Shown here piece after piece: positions 6,285-64,000 of a stretch of 64,000 bases of DNA. The translations under genes and the position numbers were made by a program. Origin of the DNA: Escherichia phage EscoHU1; the sequence record NC_133119.1, one strand, 5' to 3'. A model generated the notes under the pieces. That model made no database searches, was not told where the DNA came from, and was given only the letters and a program-made list of their open reading frames with translations. Every line of letters begins with the position of its first letter. The stretch's first letter is position 1.

Positions 6285-6501
6285 AAAGTGGGAGACAAGG
6301 AAGTTTCCCGTAAAAGAACGTAAAACTTCTGTTTACGATACTGCGGAGAAACTATGTAGGGTTGTACCACCTCGTCTCGCTGGTATCCCTAATGTCTCCA
6401 TATGGTTACTTAAACAACGGAAGACTCGTGTGTCTCTTCGCATTGGCTTTGAGTTAGATAAAGTCTATGCTGAGCTTGCTTCTTTGCTCAAAGAATCGTA
6501 A
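6268..6501 (+). CDS. hypothetical small basic protein
   Basis: internal ATG of ORF-track 6217..6501; overlaps stop of upstream gene by 17 nt; K/R rich. Confidence 0.4.
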   Translation: MTVKNKKWETRKFPVKERKTSVYDTAEKLCRVVPPRLAGIPNVSIWLLKQRKTRVSLRIGFELDKVYAELASLLKES

Positions 6502-58604: not shown

Positions 58605-59377
58605 TTTTAATACTCCGGTTTATTGGGGATTATTCCACAATAGCGCCTCGATACTTTGAAACGCTATTAGATTATAATCCGCTAGGAGTTAGCCTAAACA
58701 TTACCGTTATCCAAATTTTTAAAGAGCAGTTACTACGGGGAACATCTTAAAACCTATCGGCTAGCGTGTCAAGCGTTTTTTAAACTTTTTTCGATTTGAT
58801 GTGAGTTATATAAATCAATCATTATATTACGCCACACCATTTCCAGCCCTTGTTGCTTGCCTTTCTTGTATTGCTTGAATCTGTATTTTACAGATCGTTG
58901 CGCTACTGTCAACAAATTTTTTGTTCTGCTATCCAGTGGGCTAGCAGGTTTCGCACTAATCACTAAAGCGTTTTTTGATTTGATCATTATCGTCGATTCC
59001 TTATATTATATAAGTTTACCGCCGATAGGCTTTAAGATATTCCCTAATTTTTAAAGAGCATGGCGGTAAACTTCCCCGCCGTTGTAGTCTGGCCTTTCGT
59101 TTCCGTCTTGCCGTCCTACGAGATAAATAATAGGTTATTCCCGAAAATGGCGCAAGCATATTTTTGTAAAGAAACGTAAAGAAAACCACTACTCGCAAAC
59201 GTCCAGCGGCGCACTAAATTTAATGAAACGGGCGCGCGAATAACACCAAAACAACCATTTTAGCAAGTAATTTTTTCATTTATATTTGCTTTGCCCTACT
59301 TGACAAAATCTAAAATCCTCGTGGTGAGGTTTTCTCGGTGTACCCCTTATGATTGCCTATCTTTTCCTTTGAGGCGC

Positions 59378-59404
59378 TTAGAATCGCTTACAGAGCGTTT
59401 TAGA
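59378..59404 (+). repeat. 27-bp direct repeat, copy 1 (TTAGAATCGCTTACAGAGCGTTTTAGA)
   Basis: 24/27 identical to 63154-63180. Confidence 0.7.
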
Positions 59405-59620
59405 CCCTGTTAATAACTTATACAAAAAGCAAAAATGAAATTTAATGAATTATCCACTTGATTTTTCAAAAAAGTATTTTCTGCTGTTATTTTTCATTGA
59501 CAAATAAGTTTAGGCGTGTATCAGACCCTTAGCAGACTAACAATCGCTAGGATGATAATCACGCTGGTGGATTGTAACAGCCGAAACAGTTAGCAGACTA
59601 TTAATACTCTAAAAACCTAT

Positions 59621-59650
59621 TAGCCAACTAACTATTTCATATTATATAAT
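59621..59650 (+). promoter_or_regulatory. candidate rightward promoter (TAGCCA-18-TATAAT)
   Basis: -10 TATAAT 59645-59650 with AT-rich downstream leader; weak -35. Confidence 0.35.
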
Positions 59651-59721
59651 ATACTTATAAATTAAAGAGAAATAATAACTATAAGAAACTATCGGCTAAG
59701 TGAGAACCACTATCATTTAGG

Positions 59722-59742
59722 TTATTCACAAAGTTATCCACA
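59722..59742 (+). promoter_or_regulatory. pair of DnaA boxes (TTATTCACA, TTATCCACA)
   Basis: 9-mers at 59722-59730 and 59734-59742 match TTATNCACA. Confidence 0.6.
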
Positions 59743-59782
59743 GCACAAAATAACTTGACGCAATAGGCGACGTTTTGGCGAC

Positions 59783-59829
59783 TTATCCACAGACTTATGT
59801 ACAGGTTATCCTACTGTATAAATATACAG
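59783..59829 (+). repeat. 47-bp inverted repeat, left copy (DnaA box + SOS-box-like palindrome)
   Basis: 41/47 identical to reverse complement of 63213-63259; begins with TTATCCACA 59783-59791. Confidence 0.7.
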
Positions 59830-59830
59830 G
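59811..59830. promoter_or_regulatory. LexA (SOS) box-like palindrome CTGTATAAATATACAG
   Basis: CTGT-N8-ACAG with AT-rich centre; matches E. coli LexA consensus TACTGTATATATATACAGTA at 17/20. Confidence 0.55.
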
Positions 59831-60017
59831 GTAGAATGGTAGCAGTAACAACCGCAATCAAATTTAAGCGGCCTAAAACGCGTTCTAAGCGGTTTTTCAG
59901 CATTACCCCTTATTATAATAAAGCCTTGTGTACGCTTACAGAGAGCTAGAAATAGAAAACGCGCGGTTAGCACAAAAATAGGCAGTAGGCAAGGAATAAA
60001 AAACCTTTTCTTTTTTC

Positions 60018-60047
60018 TTGCCCCTAGCGAACAAATATCTATATCAT
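60018..60047 (+). promoter_or_regulatory. candidate promoter for rightward operon (TTGCCC-18-TATCAT)
   Basis: -35 60018-60023, -10 60042-60047, ~30 nt before RBS GAGGGAG. Confidence 0.35.
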
Positions 60048-60078
60048 TCACTCACCGATTAACGAGGGAGACAAAGAA

Positions 60079-61080
60079 ATGTCTACTGTAAGAATTGCAG
60101 TACCAACAAACGCAACTATTATTAAAGGTAGTTTGCGCAACCTGCTAGATGGTAGTAGTGCGGCAAGTATTCAGCACACCGCCGCAATGGTTGAAAAAAT
60201 TCACGAGGATATTTTAGATAATAATGATACTCATTATTCAGTCGATGATTTCACGCTATTACTAGACCAGACAAGGGCGCTAGTAATTTTCAACCGTGAT
60301 TATCACATTTTCCGTAATAGTCGTGGAACTGATATTGATTTTATCATTGTTGGTTATAGTGAGTCTCATAATGGTTACATTGCGCGATTATATAACGTGC
60401 AAGAAAAAGAGCAGGTAACAGCAACAAAAGTAAATAGTATCAGGCTTGATAGTGTCGGGTCGTTATTAAATAGTATCTGGCGCGAATTATCGTCAAGCTA
60501 TAAAGGCGCGGATAGTGACGCAATCGAAACAACTGGCGTATTGTGTTTTGAACGCGCTAGCGGTAACATGTTGATTCCTGACGATTATTTAGGGTACGGG
60601 AATGAATCAAACGTTGCAAACGCTGGATTTACATTAAAACCGCTTGACAACGTAGCAAAACAGGCTGTAGAATCTCAAACTTCAAGCGCAAATGCGCAAA
60701 CTACTGAAAATAAAGGAAATATTATGTCTAAAGTATCTTCTATCGTTGCTGCTAATAAATCCGCCGTTGTAAACGCTGCTAAATTGGAAGCGGGTAAAAT
60801 TGCACTGACTCAAATCACAAAAGTAGCGGCGAAAAAAGCGCCGTTTATGATTAAAGGGTATATTGATACGCCGATTGGTCGCGTAGTGATCGCTAACCTG
60901 CTGAGTGTAGCGGTTGACCAGTACGCCCCGACTAATGCGAAAGCGAAAGCGGTAGCAGGCGCGGCAATGGAAGCGGCAATGTTGGAAATGGTACAGAGTT
61001 TCAATATTGCGGAAATGATCGATGAAATGGTAAAAGGTATTGACATTTCTACTTTTACCAATAACACCGAAAGCGAGTAA
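60079..61080 (+). CDS. hypothetical protein
   Basis: 333 aa; RBS GAGGGAG; Ala/Lys-rich C-terminal half; no enzymatic motif. Confidence 0.55.
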   Translation: MSTVRIAVPTNATIIKGSLRNLLDGSSAASIQHTAAMVEKIHEDILDNNDTHYSVDDFTLLLDQTRALVIFNRDYHIFRNSRGTDIDFIIVGYSESHNGYIARLYNVQEKEQVTATKVNSIRLDSVGSLLNSIWRELSSSYKGADSDAIETTGVLCFERASGNMLIPDDYLGYGNESNVANAGFTLKPLDNVAKQAVESQTSSANAQTTENKGNIMSKVSSIVAANKSAVVNAAKLEAGKIALTQITKVAAKKAPFMIKGYIDTPIGRVVIANLLSVAVDQYAPTNAKAKAVAGAAMEAAMLEMVQSFNIAEMIDEMVKGIDISTFTNNTESE

Positions 61081-61088
61081 TAATAACT

Positions 61089-61120
61089 AGCGGGGATTAT
61101 TTCCCCGCTTTACTATTTCC
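61089..61120 (+). terminator. rho-independent terminator / attenuator
   Basis: AGCGGGGA-TTATT-TCCCCGCT followed by TTACTATTT. Confidence 0.55.
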
Positions 61121-61145
61121 CTGCTAATTAATAGGAGACTAATTA

Positions 61146-61640
61146 ATGTCAGAAGAAAAATATGGCTTTTCGCTAGAAAGTGTGAATGAAGCTAAACACG
61201 ATATGATCGTTTTAGTTGATTGTCATACTGGTTATTGCGGGGAGGGCTGGACGGAAGAACATTTTGTTCCCGCTGGCTGTGATCTGGATGCTTTCGCAAA
61301 CGAACACGCATATGATAATGCTTCTCGTTTCGGTAGCGATGGGGAAGAAGATGAAGAAACAGGGGAATGGATTGAAAATGATAATGTATATGCGAGTCTT
61401 TATCATTATCAATTGAGTAAGTCCGGTACTTATGTAAATGGCGGCGATCCTATTAATATCGTTATGAAACTAATTATTAAACACGGTGGCGCGGAAATAA
61501 TTGGTAACAAGGCGTTATTATACGCAAACCGATTAAAACAGCTTGTTTATATTCCTGATAATTCCCGTTGGGATGAATATGCCGTTTTACAGAAAGAATT
61601 AAAACGCTGTTTCGGCGTGGAAGCATTAGAAATAGTCTAA
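61146..61640 (+). CDS. hypothetical acidic protein
   Basis: 164 aa; acidic patch GSDGEEDEETGEWIEND; RBS TAGGAGA. Confidence 0.55.
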   Translation: MSEEKYGFSLESVNEAKHDMIVLVDCHTGYCGEGWTEEHFVPAGCDLDAFANEHAYDNASRFGSDGEEDEETGEWIENDNVYASLYHYQLSKSGTYVNGGDPINIVMKLIIKHGGAEIIGNKALLYANRLKQLVYIPDNSRWDEYAVLQKELKRCFGVEALEIV

Positions 61641-61749
61641 TGTAAAGTTTTGTAAAGGTCGCTTTAATCGGCGGCCTTTTTTGTTATAATGCCTTTACAC
61701 CGAAACGGTGGATTGAAAATTTTCCCAAAATTTTTTGGAGGCGTTAAAA

Positions 61750-61980
61750 ATGGTTGCTTTCTCTTCTTCTGACTCTCTTTTCACTGGTAAAGGTTGGGTA
61801 TCTAATCGCTGGATCATTGATCAAATGGTTTCGGAATTTGGGATAGGTAAAACTTATGTTACTATTCAGGCGCTTTATGATAATGATCAGATTGACCAGC
61901 AAACCGCCGGATTTTTGCTGGACACGTTGAAATCAGAACATTGCACCAAAAAGCAAGCGGCAAAAATCGTTTTAATGTAA
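61750..61980 (+). CDS. hypothetical small protein
   Basis: ATG 61750 after GGAGG RBS; trimmed from ORF-track 61735..61980 (TTG). Confidence 0.45.
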   Translation: MVAFSSSDSLFTGKGWVSNRWIIDQMVSEFGIGKTYVTIQALYDNDQIDQQTAGFLLDTLKSEHCTKKQAAKIVLM

Positions 61981-62033
61981 TTAATAACGGGGCGTTACTT
62001 TCGCCCCTCATTCCCTAACTAGGAGTTAAGCAA

Positions 62034-62246
62034 ATGTTAAAGAATGTTTCCCTTGCCCGTTCTAAAGGTTTTAAGCTGGTGGATGTTAACACGTTCGAGC
62101 GTCCAGATTGTAAAATCGAATATGTAGCACGCAACAAAAACGCTTTCCGTGTTACAGAAAAGAAATTTGACAAGCGCGGAAATTTGGTAGCCGAAACGGT
62201 TAAACACTTTGCCACCTTTTACGCTGCGTTTCGTGGGGTGTTATGA
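62034..62246 (+). CDS. hypothetical small protein
   Basis: 70 aa; RBS TAGGAG. Confidence 0.5.
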   Translation: MLKNVSLARSKGFKLVDVNTFERPDCKIEYVARNKNAFRVTEKKFDKRGNLVAETVKHFATFYAAFRGVL

Positions 62247-62344
62247 GATCCTTATATATTGCTCTAGCGTTTGCTACCGTTGGCGTTGTATGTTCCGTCG
62301 CCGCATTTGTTTTAAAAATGTACCTGATATTTTCCCAGCTTTAG
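62243..62344 (+). CDS. small hydrophobic peptide
   Basis: 33 aa MRSLYIALAFATVGVVCSVAAFVLKMYLIFSQL; ATGA overlap with upstream stop; not in ORF track. Confidence 0.3.
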   Translation: MRSLYIALAFATVGVVCSVAAFVLKMYLIFSQL

Positions 62345-62355
62345 GAGCTTGACAA

Positions 62356-62703
62356 ATGGTTATTTACGAGGGCAATCGTTTTGTTGCTAATTGCCGTCCG
62401 GCATTATTAGCAAACTATTTAAATCAGCTTTCACCAGTTTATAAAGGTGTGGTTAATATCTATGAAGGCAAAGCACATTATAAAATTTCTGCCGTTGTCG
62501 CTCGCGAGCTTGCCTTTCAGTTTCTTACTTTTAACTCATGCGATATTCAGGTTATGGGTGAGTCATTAGTAGCAGAAAATGAAAATGAATTTATTGACAT
62601 TTTCCGCAAAGTATGTACCGAGCGCCTGATTATGAAAGGCGCATATATTCAATCAACCGCTGATAGTATTGAAACAGCGTTTCGAAAAATTGCATATGAA
62701 TAG
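62356..62703 (+). CDS. hypothetical protein
   Basis: 115 aa; RBS TAGGAGC. Confidence 0.5.
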   Translation: MVIYEGNRFVANCRPALLANYLNQLSPVYKGVVNIYEGKAHYKISAVVARELAFQFLTFNSCDIQVMGESLVAENENEFIDIFRKVCTERLIMKGAYIQSTADSIETAFRKIAYE

Positions 62704-62742
62704 CTGGTGGCGTAAAACGCAAAGTCACAAATCTAATAATAC

Positions 62743-62772
62743 CGCTGGGAAACATTCCCAGCGTTTACGATT
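62743..62772 (+). terminator. terminator-like hairpin
   Basis: CGCTGGGA-AACA-TCCCAGCG followed by TTTACGATTT. Confidence 0.45.
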
Positions 62773-62826
62773 TGGTAATGGCTTCACAATGATATTGATA
62801 ATCATTCTCATTCTAGGAGCAATGGC

Positions 62827-63066
62827 ATGGCTGTAAGAATTTTACGATATGTAGAACGTAAAGAAACCGATATTATGCAGCATCATTTAACTGATGCGCA
62901 ATATGCGCAATTTTTAGAAATGCAGAAAAGCGGAGCTAGTACGGCGGCGCTAGGGGCGTGGATCAATTCAGTTTCAATATGTACGCATTTTGATTCATAC
63001 GGATATACGCCAGCCGAAACCGTCCAGATCTTTGACGACTACGAGAAGGAATACATAGCAGACTAA
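62827..63066 (+). CDS. hypothetical small protein
   Basis: 79 aa; RBS TAGGAGCA. Confidence 0.5.
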   Translation: MAVRILRYVERKETDIMQHHLTDAQYAQFLEMQKSGASTAALGAWINSVSICTHFDSYGYTPAETVQIFDDYEKEYIAD

Positions 63067-63072
63067 TAATAA

Positions 63073-63101
63073 CGGGGCGCAACTACCGGCCCCGCCTTTT
63101 C
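63073..63101 (+). terminator. rho-independent terminator at end of rightward operon
   Basis: CGGGGC-10 nt-GCCCCG followed by CCTTTTCT. Confidence 0.5.
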
Positions 63102-63153
63102 TGGCCTTCCTCAAATTTCCCCTTGTAAAATACCTCCTCCAAAAATAAACGCG

Positions 63154-63180
63154 TTAGAATGCGTTACAGAGCGTTTTAGA
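63154..63180 (+). repeat. 27-bp direct repeat, copy 2 (TTAGAATGCGTTACAGAGCGTTTTAGA)
   Basis: 24/27 identical to 59378-59404. Confidence 0.7.
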
Positions 63181-63210
63181 GCTATATTAGAGCTATTCAC
63201 TACACAGGAA

Positions 63211-63230
63211 TACTGTATAAATATACAGTA
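63211..63230. promoter_or_regulatory. LexA (SOS) box-like palindrome TACTGTATAAATATACAGTA
   Basis: 19/20 match to E. coli LexA consensus; core 16-mer identical to 59814-59829. Confidence 0.6.
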
Positions 63231-63259
63231 GAATAACCTGTTGATAAGTCTGTTGATAA
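63213..63259 (-). repeat. 47-bp inverted repeat, right copy (SOS-box-like palindrome + degenerate DnaA boxes)
   Basis: reverse complement is 41/47 identical to 59783-59829; contains TGTTGATAA twice. Confidence 0.7.
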
Positions 63260-63352
63260 CGCCTCAAAATCGCTAGGATTTTGTCAGGTCAAATCGTGCT
63301 GTTAATAAACCTGTGAATAAATTAAATAACAGTGTTTCTCACTTCACTTTGT

Positions 63353-63497
63353 AAATGCGAGTCATTCTCGTTATCATTCGCGTTTCCCTTCCTAAATGCA
63401 AATCATTCTCATTCGTATTCCGGTAGTCAAATGATAACCATTCTCATTCGCATTCAACTTCTCAAATGCGAATCAATCTCATTATCATTCGCATTTT
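63353..63497 (+). repeat. tandem array of four imperfect palindromic units (consensus AAATGCGAATCATTCTCATT-N-CATTCGCATT)
   Basis: units start at 63353, 63394, 63429, 63464 (35-41 bp period); each unit is internally palindromic. Confidence 0.75.
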
Positions 63498-63502
63498 GGC
63501 AG

Positions 63503-63535
63503 GCAGGGCATTTTCATTTTGCCCTGCGCTTTTGT
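63503..63535 (+). terminator. hairpin between repeat arrays
   Basis: GCAGGGC-ATTTTCATTTT-GCCCTGC followed by GCTTTTG. Confidence 0.35.
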
Positions 63536-63757
63536 GCAAATCCGACATTTGCCCCCACGGATTACGTGCCAGCGTGCATGTGCGAATCCGACAATTTTTG
63601 GTAGTGTGCAAATCCGATGGCAAATATTTTTTATATGTGCGAATCCGACAATGAATTTTCCTAAAAACTCCAGCAATCACGAGTGCGGCTCGATTCCTGT
63701 GGAATTAGCTAGAATATGCGCAGAACCGACAAGCGTTAAGGTGTGCGAATCCGACAA
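63533..63757 (+). repeat. six direct copies of a 16-bp motif TGTGCGAATCCGACAA
   Basis: copies at 63533, 63579, 63605, 63636, 63717, 63742, all same orientation, irregular 25-81 bp spacing. Confidence 0.75.
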
Positions 63758-64000
63758 GATTTTTGTGACTTCGATGAGAGGGTGTGTAATTGTGTGAGTT
63801 TGTGGGAGAGTTGATGCAGCGAGAGAAAATTAGAGGAGAAACTGGAGGGTGCAGCTGTGGTGGCGTGAAACGCCTGGTTTGCTGCGTTTTTGGGGATAAT
63901 GTGGGATGTTTTGGGATAATTGGGCATGGAGCGAGATAAAGTGAAATTTTATTAGCAAAATGGGGCAAAATCGCTTGACAAGTGAAAATTCCTGTGGCTC

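Follow-up and report, generated by a model that had tools for sequence, protein, structure and literature searches.

The window analysed here is a 64,000-nucleotide (nt) stretch of Escherichia phage EscoHU1 (NC_133119.1). Between positions 60079 and 63066 it carries a block of rightward genes, which the original prediction described as one operon of seven unknown open reading frames (ORFs) of 333, 164, 76, 70, 33, 115, and 79 amino acids (aa), offered as anti-defence candidates. The block is the rightward pre-early (first-step-transfer) block of an Epseptimavirus-type T5-like phage, positioned in the terminal repeat and divergent from dmp-A1-A2. Its members include the orthologues of the T5 abasic-site nickase T5.015 and of the toxic protein T5.011, together with a strongly acidic 164-aa protein whose family has no counterpart in T5.

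All seven ORFs are found where they had first been placed, and an eighth, of 46 aa, had been missed. In order along the plus strand, they are the 333-aa (60079–61080), 164-aa (61146–61640), 76-aa (61750–61980), 70-aa (62034–62246), 33-aa (62243–62344), 115-aa (62356–62703), 46-aa (62696–62836), and 79-aa (62827–63066) ORFs. The expectation that most have TAGGAG-type ribosome-binding sites is borne out, with a strong Shine-Dalgarno sequence 7–8 nt before the ATG in six of the seven (TAGGAG in four, GGAGG in one, and GAGGGAG in one). GAGGGAG lies 8 nt before the ATG at 60079 and GGAGG at 61737–61741 precedes the start at 61750, while the TAGGAG copies at 61132–61137, 62020–62025, 62342–62347, and 62814–62819 precede the starts at 61146, 62034, 62356, and 62827. 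The start of the 33-aa ORF overlaps the stop of the 70-aa ORF (ATGA), and the 46-aa ORF overlaps both the 115-aa stop and the 79-aa start. Codon-wise comparison with up to seven related loci gives a ratio of non-synonymous to synonymous substitution rates (dN/dS) of 0.03–0.34 for each ORF, which indicates purifying selection, and six ORFs match PHROG families with E 1e-50 to 1e-158. The ORFs are thus real genes. The 46-aa ORF, annotated in a single record (SpoonbillGilly), shows four to six synonymous and zero non-synonymous differences against each of four loci.

The DNA of this region is 91–95% identical to many Epseptimavirus and Tequintavirus genomes, which are T5-like phages of Salmonella and Escherichia. 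To the left of the block, on the minus strand, are the orthologues of T5 dmp, T5.002, A1, T5.005, A2, T5.007, and hdi (T5.008), which confirms the A1/A2/dmp-like neighbours noted earlier; a T5.009 orthologue with a weak match is also on this side and strand. Within the block, the 333-, 76-, 70-, and 115-aa ORFs are the orthologues of T5.011, T5.012, T5.014, and T5.015, at 57, 89, 93, and 87% identity (tblastn), and the T5 order is kept. The statement that no ORF shows a recognisable motif therefore holds by eye but misses four clear orthologues of numbered T5 genes. Scans of all ORFs against Pfam, PHROGs, NCBIfam, and PADLOC return only DUF7566 and unnamed PHROGs, and PDB single-sequence and profile searches with the block proteins give nothing below E 0.01. 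In the comparison with T5 genes, T5.003, hegG, T5.013, T5.016, and T5.017 have no orthologue in the window, and the 164-, 33-, 46-, and 79-aa ORFs have no counterpart in T5. Identity along the block is mosaic, ranging from 85 to 100% per gene against one and the same genome, which points to frequent recombination.

The block is enclosed by an inverted repeat. The repeat is imperfect and 131/132 nt long. A repeat search places its left arm at 59698–59829, corresponding to the T5 IRC-spacer-IRD, and its right arm at 63213–63344, corresponding to the T5 IRD'-spacer-IRC', with the injection-stop region after it. This repeat structure has been reported for T5-like phages (10.1101/866236). The arms contain DnaA boxes in pairs, 3 nt apart; in the left arm these are at 59722–59730 with 59734–59742 and at 59783–59791 with 59795–59803. 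The segment thus has the features of a T5-like pre-early right-hand block: it is positioned between inverted repeats, is divergent from dmp-A1-A2, and carries numbered T5 orthologues in T5 order. The flanking repeats and the ordered orthologues identify the segment as the right-hand pre-early unit in the first-step-transfer DNA.

The repeats and the DNA around them have several further features. An identical 18-nt palindrome, TACTGTATAAATATACAG, stands at the inner end of both arms (59812–59829 and, as a second copy inside the right arm, 63211–63228). Its sequence conforms to the SOS-box pattern of LexA, CTGT-N8-ACAG, and its core is A/T-rich. This pattern occurs four times in the window versus 0.8 expected, and a core made entirely of A/T is seen only in the two palindrome copies. 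The palindrome is kept in T5, OSY-STA, SpoonbillGilly, and SIY1lw, and LexA is unmentioned in Davison's analysis of the inverted repeats of T5-like phages (10.1101/866236). A stretch of ~1.1 kb without a convincing gene (58988–60078) separates the hdi/T5.009 orthologues from the 333-aa ORF, at the place where T5 has the HNH endonuclease hegG. It contains several promoter-like sites (such as TTGACA at ~59311 and ~59499, and TAGCCA-18-TATAAT at 59621–59650), DnaA box pairs, and short repeats in common with the region right of the block. Also to the right, at 63330–63800, are direct-repeat arrays, with four copies of TGTGCGAATCCGACA and ATCATTCTCATTC-type repeats, which resemble the T5 injection-stop-signal repeat region in position and character. 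An Rfam scan of 58900–64000 returned nothing meaningful.

A sigma-70 promoter-like sequence, TTGCCC-18-TATCAT, lies at 60018–60047 on the plus strand, upstream of the 333-aa ORF and preceded by an A/T-rich stretch. It is homologous to the promoter annotated at T5 6411–6489, upstream of T5.011, and a promoter is predicted there in phage BF23 too. GC-rich hairpins follow the 333-, 164-, 76-, 115-, and 79-aa ORFs, and the stability of four of the five far exceeds that of shuffled controls. The one behind the 164-aa ORF, alone among them, looks like a canonical intrinsic terminator, with a stem at 61654–61679 followed by U6. It is overlapped by an extended -10 element of the form TGnTATAAT, TGTTATAAT, at 61682–61690, so that the composite element spans 61654–61690 on the plus strand. 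In the BF23 record, too, a terminator and a promoter have been annotated at the corresponding site, independently of this analysis.

The remaining hairpins, also on the plus strand, are less typical. The one after the 333-aa ORF (61089–61109; -15.7 kcal/mol, z -3.95) has an interrupted U tail, and the one after the 76-aa ORF (61989–62007) has no U tract. A third follows the 115-aa ORF, inside the 46-aa ORF (62743–62763; -16.7 kcal/mol, z -4.3). The terminal hairpin at 63074–63093, followed by CCUUUUCU, is the likely end of the unit, and both T5 and BF23 have annotated terminators at the corresponding position. The hairpin at 61089–61109 is not present in T5 and is part of an insertion carrying the 164-aa gene. 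Because the terminator/TGTTATAAT element comes directly after T5.011 in T5, the 164-aa gene, its hairpin, and its ribosome-binding site form an insertion between T5.011 and that element.

These signals modify the view of the block as one operon. A rightward block equipped with ribosome-binding sites is present, but the canonical terminator overlapping a TGnTATAAT promoter splits it after the 164-aa gene, and it is better described as two predicted tandem rightward units with internal hairpins. The host sigma-70 RNA polymerase would transcribe the block as soon as the leading ~8% of the genome is inside the cell, starting at the conserved promoter at ~60018–60047 and probably also at a second one at 61682–61690. 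Pre-early expression has been measured in the relative Bas33 (PMC13250531).

The 115-aa ORF (62356–62703, phrog_4379) is the orthologue of T5.015, an abasic-site nickase that depends on the host uracil glycosylase Ung and belongs to the PF26847 family. The homology is full-length, with 87% identity over 113/114 residues. Our own T5.015-family hidden Markov model (HMM) matches the ORF with E 3e-50, and the family motifs (M/L)GE(S/A), TERL, and T.(F/I)R are kept. A Pfam scan of the ORF gave no PF26847 match, the Pfam copy used being one without PF26847; precomputed tables record the family on close and distant homologues, including an 88%-identical protein (L009). In T5, the genes T5.002 to T5.017 have been cloned, and T5.008, T5.011, and T5.015 were toxic (Mahata et al. 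2021, PMC8201957). T5.015 binds Ung and nicks the abasic sites that Ung makes in dUMP-containing host DNA, leading to arrest of replication and division (PMC8201957). At 87% identity to a protein for which the function has been shown in T5, the 115-aa protein is most probably such a nickase.

Public annotation assigns this activity to a different gene of the block. The family of the 70-aa ORF (62034–62246), a basic protein of isoelectric point (pI) 10.1 and the T5.014 orthologue, is labelled [quoted passage not shown] by phrog_4227, RefSeq, and Pharokka, while the 115-aa family is listed as unknown or hypothetical. If these labels were correct, the 70-aa protein would be the Ung-dependent nickase, and the 115-aa protein would be one of unknown function. 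This is highly improbable, as the paper describing the nickase uses T5.0xx tags, and the protein with the GenBank name T5.015 is the 114-aa AAS77062.1, which is called a “DNA-(apurinic or apyrimidinic site) endonuclease” in UniRef. The 70-aa T5 protein is T5.014 (AAS77061.1), and the name “ORF015” applies to it solely under the Paris-Orsay scheme (UniProt Q5DMS9). PF26847, named Phage_T5_AP_Endonuclease, sits on homologues of 119–130 aa, and T5.014 was tested and found not to be toxic (PMC8201957). The 70-aa ORF is not the orthologue of the T5.015 that was studied. The names, PF26847, and the lack of toxicity of T5.014 therefore identify the 115-aa ORF as the nickase gene, and the label on the 70-aa ORF is probably wrong, very probably the product of an off-by-one transfer between two T5 numbering schemes.

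The 333-aa ORF (60079–61080) matches Pfam DUF7566 with E 5e-140. An AlphaFold2 model and alignments divide the protein into a variable alpha/beta N-terminal domain (residues 1–190), a disordered linker, and a near-invariant helical C-terminal domain (~216–333). T5.011 is toxic in E. coli (PMC8201957; 10.64898/2026.04.02.716235), causes uneven nucleoids, and is clonable only after recoding (Annor et al., 10.64898/2026.04.02.716235). As its orthologue, the 333-aa protein would likewise be toxic and disorganise the nucleoid. Many homologues in UniRef, and some in GenBank records, are named “DNA N-6-adenine methyltransferase”. This identity was considered and rejected, for the protein matches DUF7566 only and no methyltransferase model.

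The best sigma-70 match in the region is inside the 333-aa ORF (TTGACA-18-TAGAAT, 60644–60673, 11/12 positions). Further along, at 60713–60726, AAGGA is followed 6 nt later by the invariant Met216, where the ultra-conserved C-terminal domain begins. TTGACAA, a TAnAnT pattern, AAGGA, and Met216 are kept in T5, and the Met is shifted in Sugarland. An internal promoter and start could yield a separate 118-aa product, and an internal start could also explain why the wild-type T5 gene 011 is clonable only after recoding.

Among the smaller ORFs, the 76-aa ORF (61750–61980) is the orthologue of T5.012, which is not toxic (PMC8201957). The 33-aa ORF (62243–62344), found in Epseptimavirus-type phages, encodes a hydrophobic peptide whose ATGA start is coupled to the 70-aa stop, and the 46-aa ORF (62696–62836) encodes one with a hydrophobic C-terminus. 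Both peptides probably act at the membrane. The 79-aa ORF (62827–63066, phrog_12351) is acidic. In the interval 62703–62827, close relatives carry one more gene, of 61–70 aa, which separates the T5.015 orthologue from the 46-aa ORF (L001 7688–7900; L002 7697–7882), and the 46-aa ORF abuts the 115-aa ORF in the window because this gene was deleted there. No published characterisation was found for the 164-, 76-, 70-, 79-, or 33-aa families. The description of the block as unknown genes is thus apt for most of its products, but not for the T5.015 orthologue or the orthologue of toxic T5.011.

The 164-aa protein (61146–61640, plus strand; phrog_6741) belongs to a family restricted to Demerecviridae-type phages and is present in BF23. 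Its acidity, the feature originally singled out, is confirmed by a pI of 4.55 and a net charge of -17, and just one of the window's 67 long ORFs exceeds it in acidity. The acidity extends to the whole family, with a pI of 4.05–4.80 and a net charge of -10 to -33 in 27/27 aligned members. The acidic patch itself, EEDEETGE, is a loop of variable length that is a CxxC...CxxC zinc ribbon in most of the distant homologues. Only T28, G29, G32, A55, and A59 are near-invariant in the family, and conservation does not extend to the Cys of the TGxCGE motif. With no conserved residue of a catalytic type, just small ones, the protein most likely has no enzymatic activity and works instead as a polyanionic binding protein.

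The family is small: 19 clusters were found among 5.8 billion proteins, and a profile search of 1.84 billion gave 33 representatives. It occurs in 337 phage records, all of the T5 type, at 83% identity in BF23 and ~33% in Klebsiella Sugarland-like phages. An AlphaFold2 model of the 164-aa protein is confident and contains two alpha/beta domains (mean predicted local distance difference test score, pLDDT, 86.7; predicted template modelling score, pTM, 0.81). Compared with solved folds, including Ocr, ArdA, and Ugi, the model has no match, and in BFVD it matches solely uncharacterised proteins of Demerecviridae-type phages. Searches of PDB (sequence and profile), Pfam, NCBIfam, and PADLOC with the protein also found no match. 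Measured against the DNA mimics Ocr and ArdA, the protein shares their strong net negative charge but belongs to no known mimic family by sequence or fold. The acidic patch was initially likened to those of DNA-mimic anti-restriction proteins; the charge is indeed a property of the whole family, but the patch is a variable loop or zinc ribbon and the model is unlike any solved DNA mimic.

These properties bear on whether the block is mainly an anti-defence island, in which the 164-aa protein would be an Ocr/ArdA-type DNA mimic that titrates restriction enzymes ahead of the entry of the remaining genome. The pre-early timing, the gene content that differs among relatives, and the strong acidity throughout the 164-aa family agree with such a role. 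The insensitivity of T5-like phages to restriction is due to something from the first-step-transfer DNA, with the gene unassigned (PMC10644984), and the authors of a T5 deletion study say that the genes may matter against defence systems (10.64898/2026.04.02.716235). However, T5 is restriction-insensitive yet has no homologues of the 164-, 33-, and 79-aa proteins, and Epseptimavirus, which carries these genes, is the more restriction-sensitive genus (PMC10644984). The database searches, the loop or zinc-ribbon nature of the patch, and the synteny described below, which links the 164-aa gene to the nickase, also speak against it. An anti-defence island with a DNA mimic is therefore improbable, although some of the orphan genes may have anti-defence roles.

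A different association of the 164-aa family emerges at distant loci, meaning those that encode 164-aa homologues at 24–34% identity. By HMM searches and hhalign, the 164-aa-family gene directly adjoins a T5.015-family gene in 9/9 assessable loci of this kind (Sugarland and eight metagenomic loci), and the adjoining genes often share an overlapping stop and start. The nickase-family gene is downstream in Sugarland (L007), L008, L010, L011, L013, and L015, and upstream in L014 and L016/L017. A DUF7566 gene is found further upstream wherever the contig reaches that far. The T5.015-family HMM matches sequences outside the model with E 1e-10 to 1e-17, and the most distant neighbours match T5.015 with an hhalign probability of 99.6% and E 9e-25. 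Other downstream genes at these loci have no recorded family, except an HNH endonuclease in L016/L017, and none match the three profiles. The conserved neighbours therefore mark DUF7566, the acidic protein, and the nickase as the conserved core of the right-hand pre-early unit.

In Sugarland (L007 1877–4324), the DUF7566, acidic-protein, and nickase genes share the orientation of A2 and are not divergent from it. Another gene of 164 aa (gp013) lies there between the DUF7566 and acidic-protein genes; it was considered as a paralogue of the acidic family and rejected, with an hhalign probability of 0.2%.

Because the 164-aa gene abuts a T5.015-family gene in each distant relative examined, the protein's most likely activity is to modulate the Ung/abasic-site nicking pathway. 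That it acts in or alongside this pathway is suggested by synteny and composition, and is put forward tentatively. It may be a nucleic-acid-like decoy that binds Ung, the nickase, or a host repair enzyme. In the most specific form of this idea, which is rather unlikely, the protein is a new-fold, Demerecviridae-type polyanionic decoy with an ancestral zinc ribbon that works with T5.015. It would bind Ung or block exonuclease III or endonuclease IV, so that Ung-made lesions in host DNA become lethal nicks, and DUF7566, T5.015, and the 164-aa protein would form a conserved three-gene core for attack on host DNA. The Ocr/ArdA-type mimic is the weaker proposal compared with a role in the Ung pathway, because the protein has no likeness to known mimics, the restriction-insensitive T5 is without the gene, and Epseptimavirus, which has it, is more restriction-sensitive.

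The synteny could also reflect inherited gene order, with the 164-, 33-, 46-, and 79-aa ORFs being independent mobile cassettes directed at unrelated host targets. The 164-aa gene is, compared with T5, a discrete insertion with its own hairpin and ribosome-binding site between the T5.011 stop and the conserved terminator, and the mosaic identity along the block speaks of frequent recombination. Many phages, T5 among them, have the nickase but not the acidic protein: 436 records contain T5.015 versus ~337 with the 164-aa family. Against this, adjacency to the T5.015 family persists at 24–34% identity and survives inverted gene order (L014 and L016/17 versus L007, L008, L010, L011, L013, and L015), and all other downstream genes differ between the distant loci. 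The 164-aa family was found without a T5.015-family gene at none of the examined loci. Unrelated mobile cassettes are a plausible but doubtful account of these genes.

Overall, the locus is very probably best explained as a T5-like pre-early host-takeover block, including the roles proposed for its products. These products appear to act on the host rather than to form a uniform set of anti-defence genes. The cassette would comprise one member that carries out Ung-dependent nicking of host DNA, one known toxic protein, small membrane peptides, and several orphans. The toxicity of T5.011, T5.013, and T5.015 has been confirmed (Annor et al., 10.64898/2026.04.02.716235).

Several considerations weigh against the host-takeover reading and the Ung link within it. 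The transcription starts and terminator efficiencies are predictions, and the T5.015 function of the 115-aa ORF is transferred by homology. The order of genes in phage modules is often kept by descent alone, making adjacency weaker evidence than in bacteria. In the lineage of the window, ~0.7 kb separates the 164- and 115-aa genes, an interval that holds three genes and a terminator. The protein is also dispensable for Ung-dependent nicking, which T5 carries out with no 164-aa homologue of its own. In addition, hegG to T5.017 can be deleted from T5, with small plaques on laboratory strains (10.64898/2026.04.02.716235), and this dispensability of the right arm is equally compatible with an anti-defence role. 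Dispensable pre-early genes have been viewed as possible counter-defence factors (10.64898/2026.04.02.716235; PMC10644984).

Most of the block is unremarkable. The operon, repeats, promoter, terminator, and T5.015 function are already published, and near-identical genes are present in hundreds of database genomes. Three points are added: genes of the acidic family keep their place beside those of the nickase family, acidity runs through the whole acidic family in combination with a zinc ribbon that is ancestral, and two public labels are diagnosed as misleading, namely the nickase name on the 70-aa family and the methyltransferase name on DUF7566. T5.015 and T5.011 can be removed from lists of counter-defence candidates because their homology is already clear. 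The 164-aa family gains a concrete link to Ung-dependent nicking, which replaces the generic guess that an acidic protein is a DNA mimic.

The known systems closest to the block and its products differ in how far they resemble them. Like Ocr, ArdA, Ugi, and p56, the 164-aa protein is predicted to be expressed early, is small, and has a strong negative charge conserved across its family. Unlike them, it shows no sequence or fold similarity to the group and is built of two alpha/beta domains into which a zinc ribbon was ancestrally inserted. The charge density of Ocr and ArdA is about -0.17 to -0.25 per residue, and that of the 164-aa protein, at -0.10 per residue, is below these values. BF23_00011 and phrog_6741 are direct homologues of the 164-aa protein, have the same position after the T5.011 orthologue, and are all annotated as hypothetical. 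The T5 right-hand pre-early genes T5.011–T5.017 share with the block a position between DnaA-box repeats, the orientation, and the conserved promoter and terminator. The window differs from this T5 block in being without hegG, T5.013, T5.016, and T5.017 and having the 164-, 33-, 46-, and 79-aa ORFs instead, and in the strongly diverged N-terminal domain of its T5.011 orthologue. The 115-aa ORF is alike over its full length to T5.015 (Mahata et al. 2021; PF26847), with nothing of note that differs in sequence.

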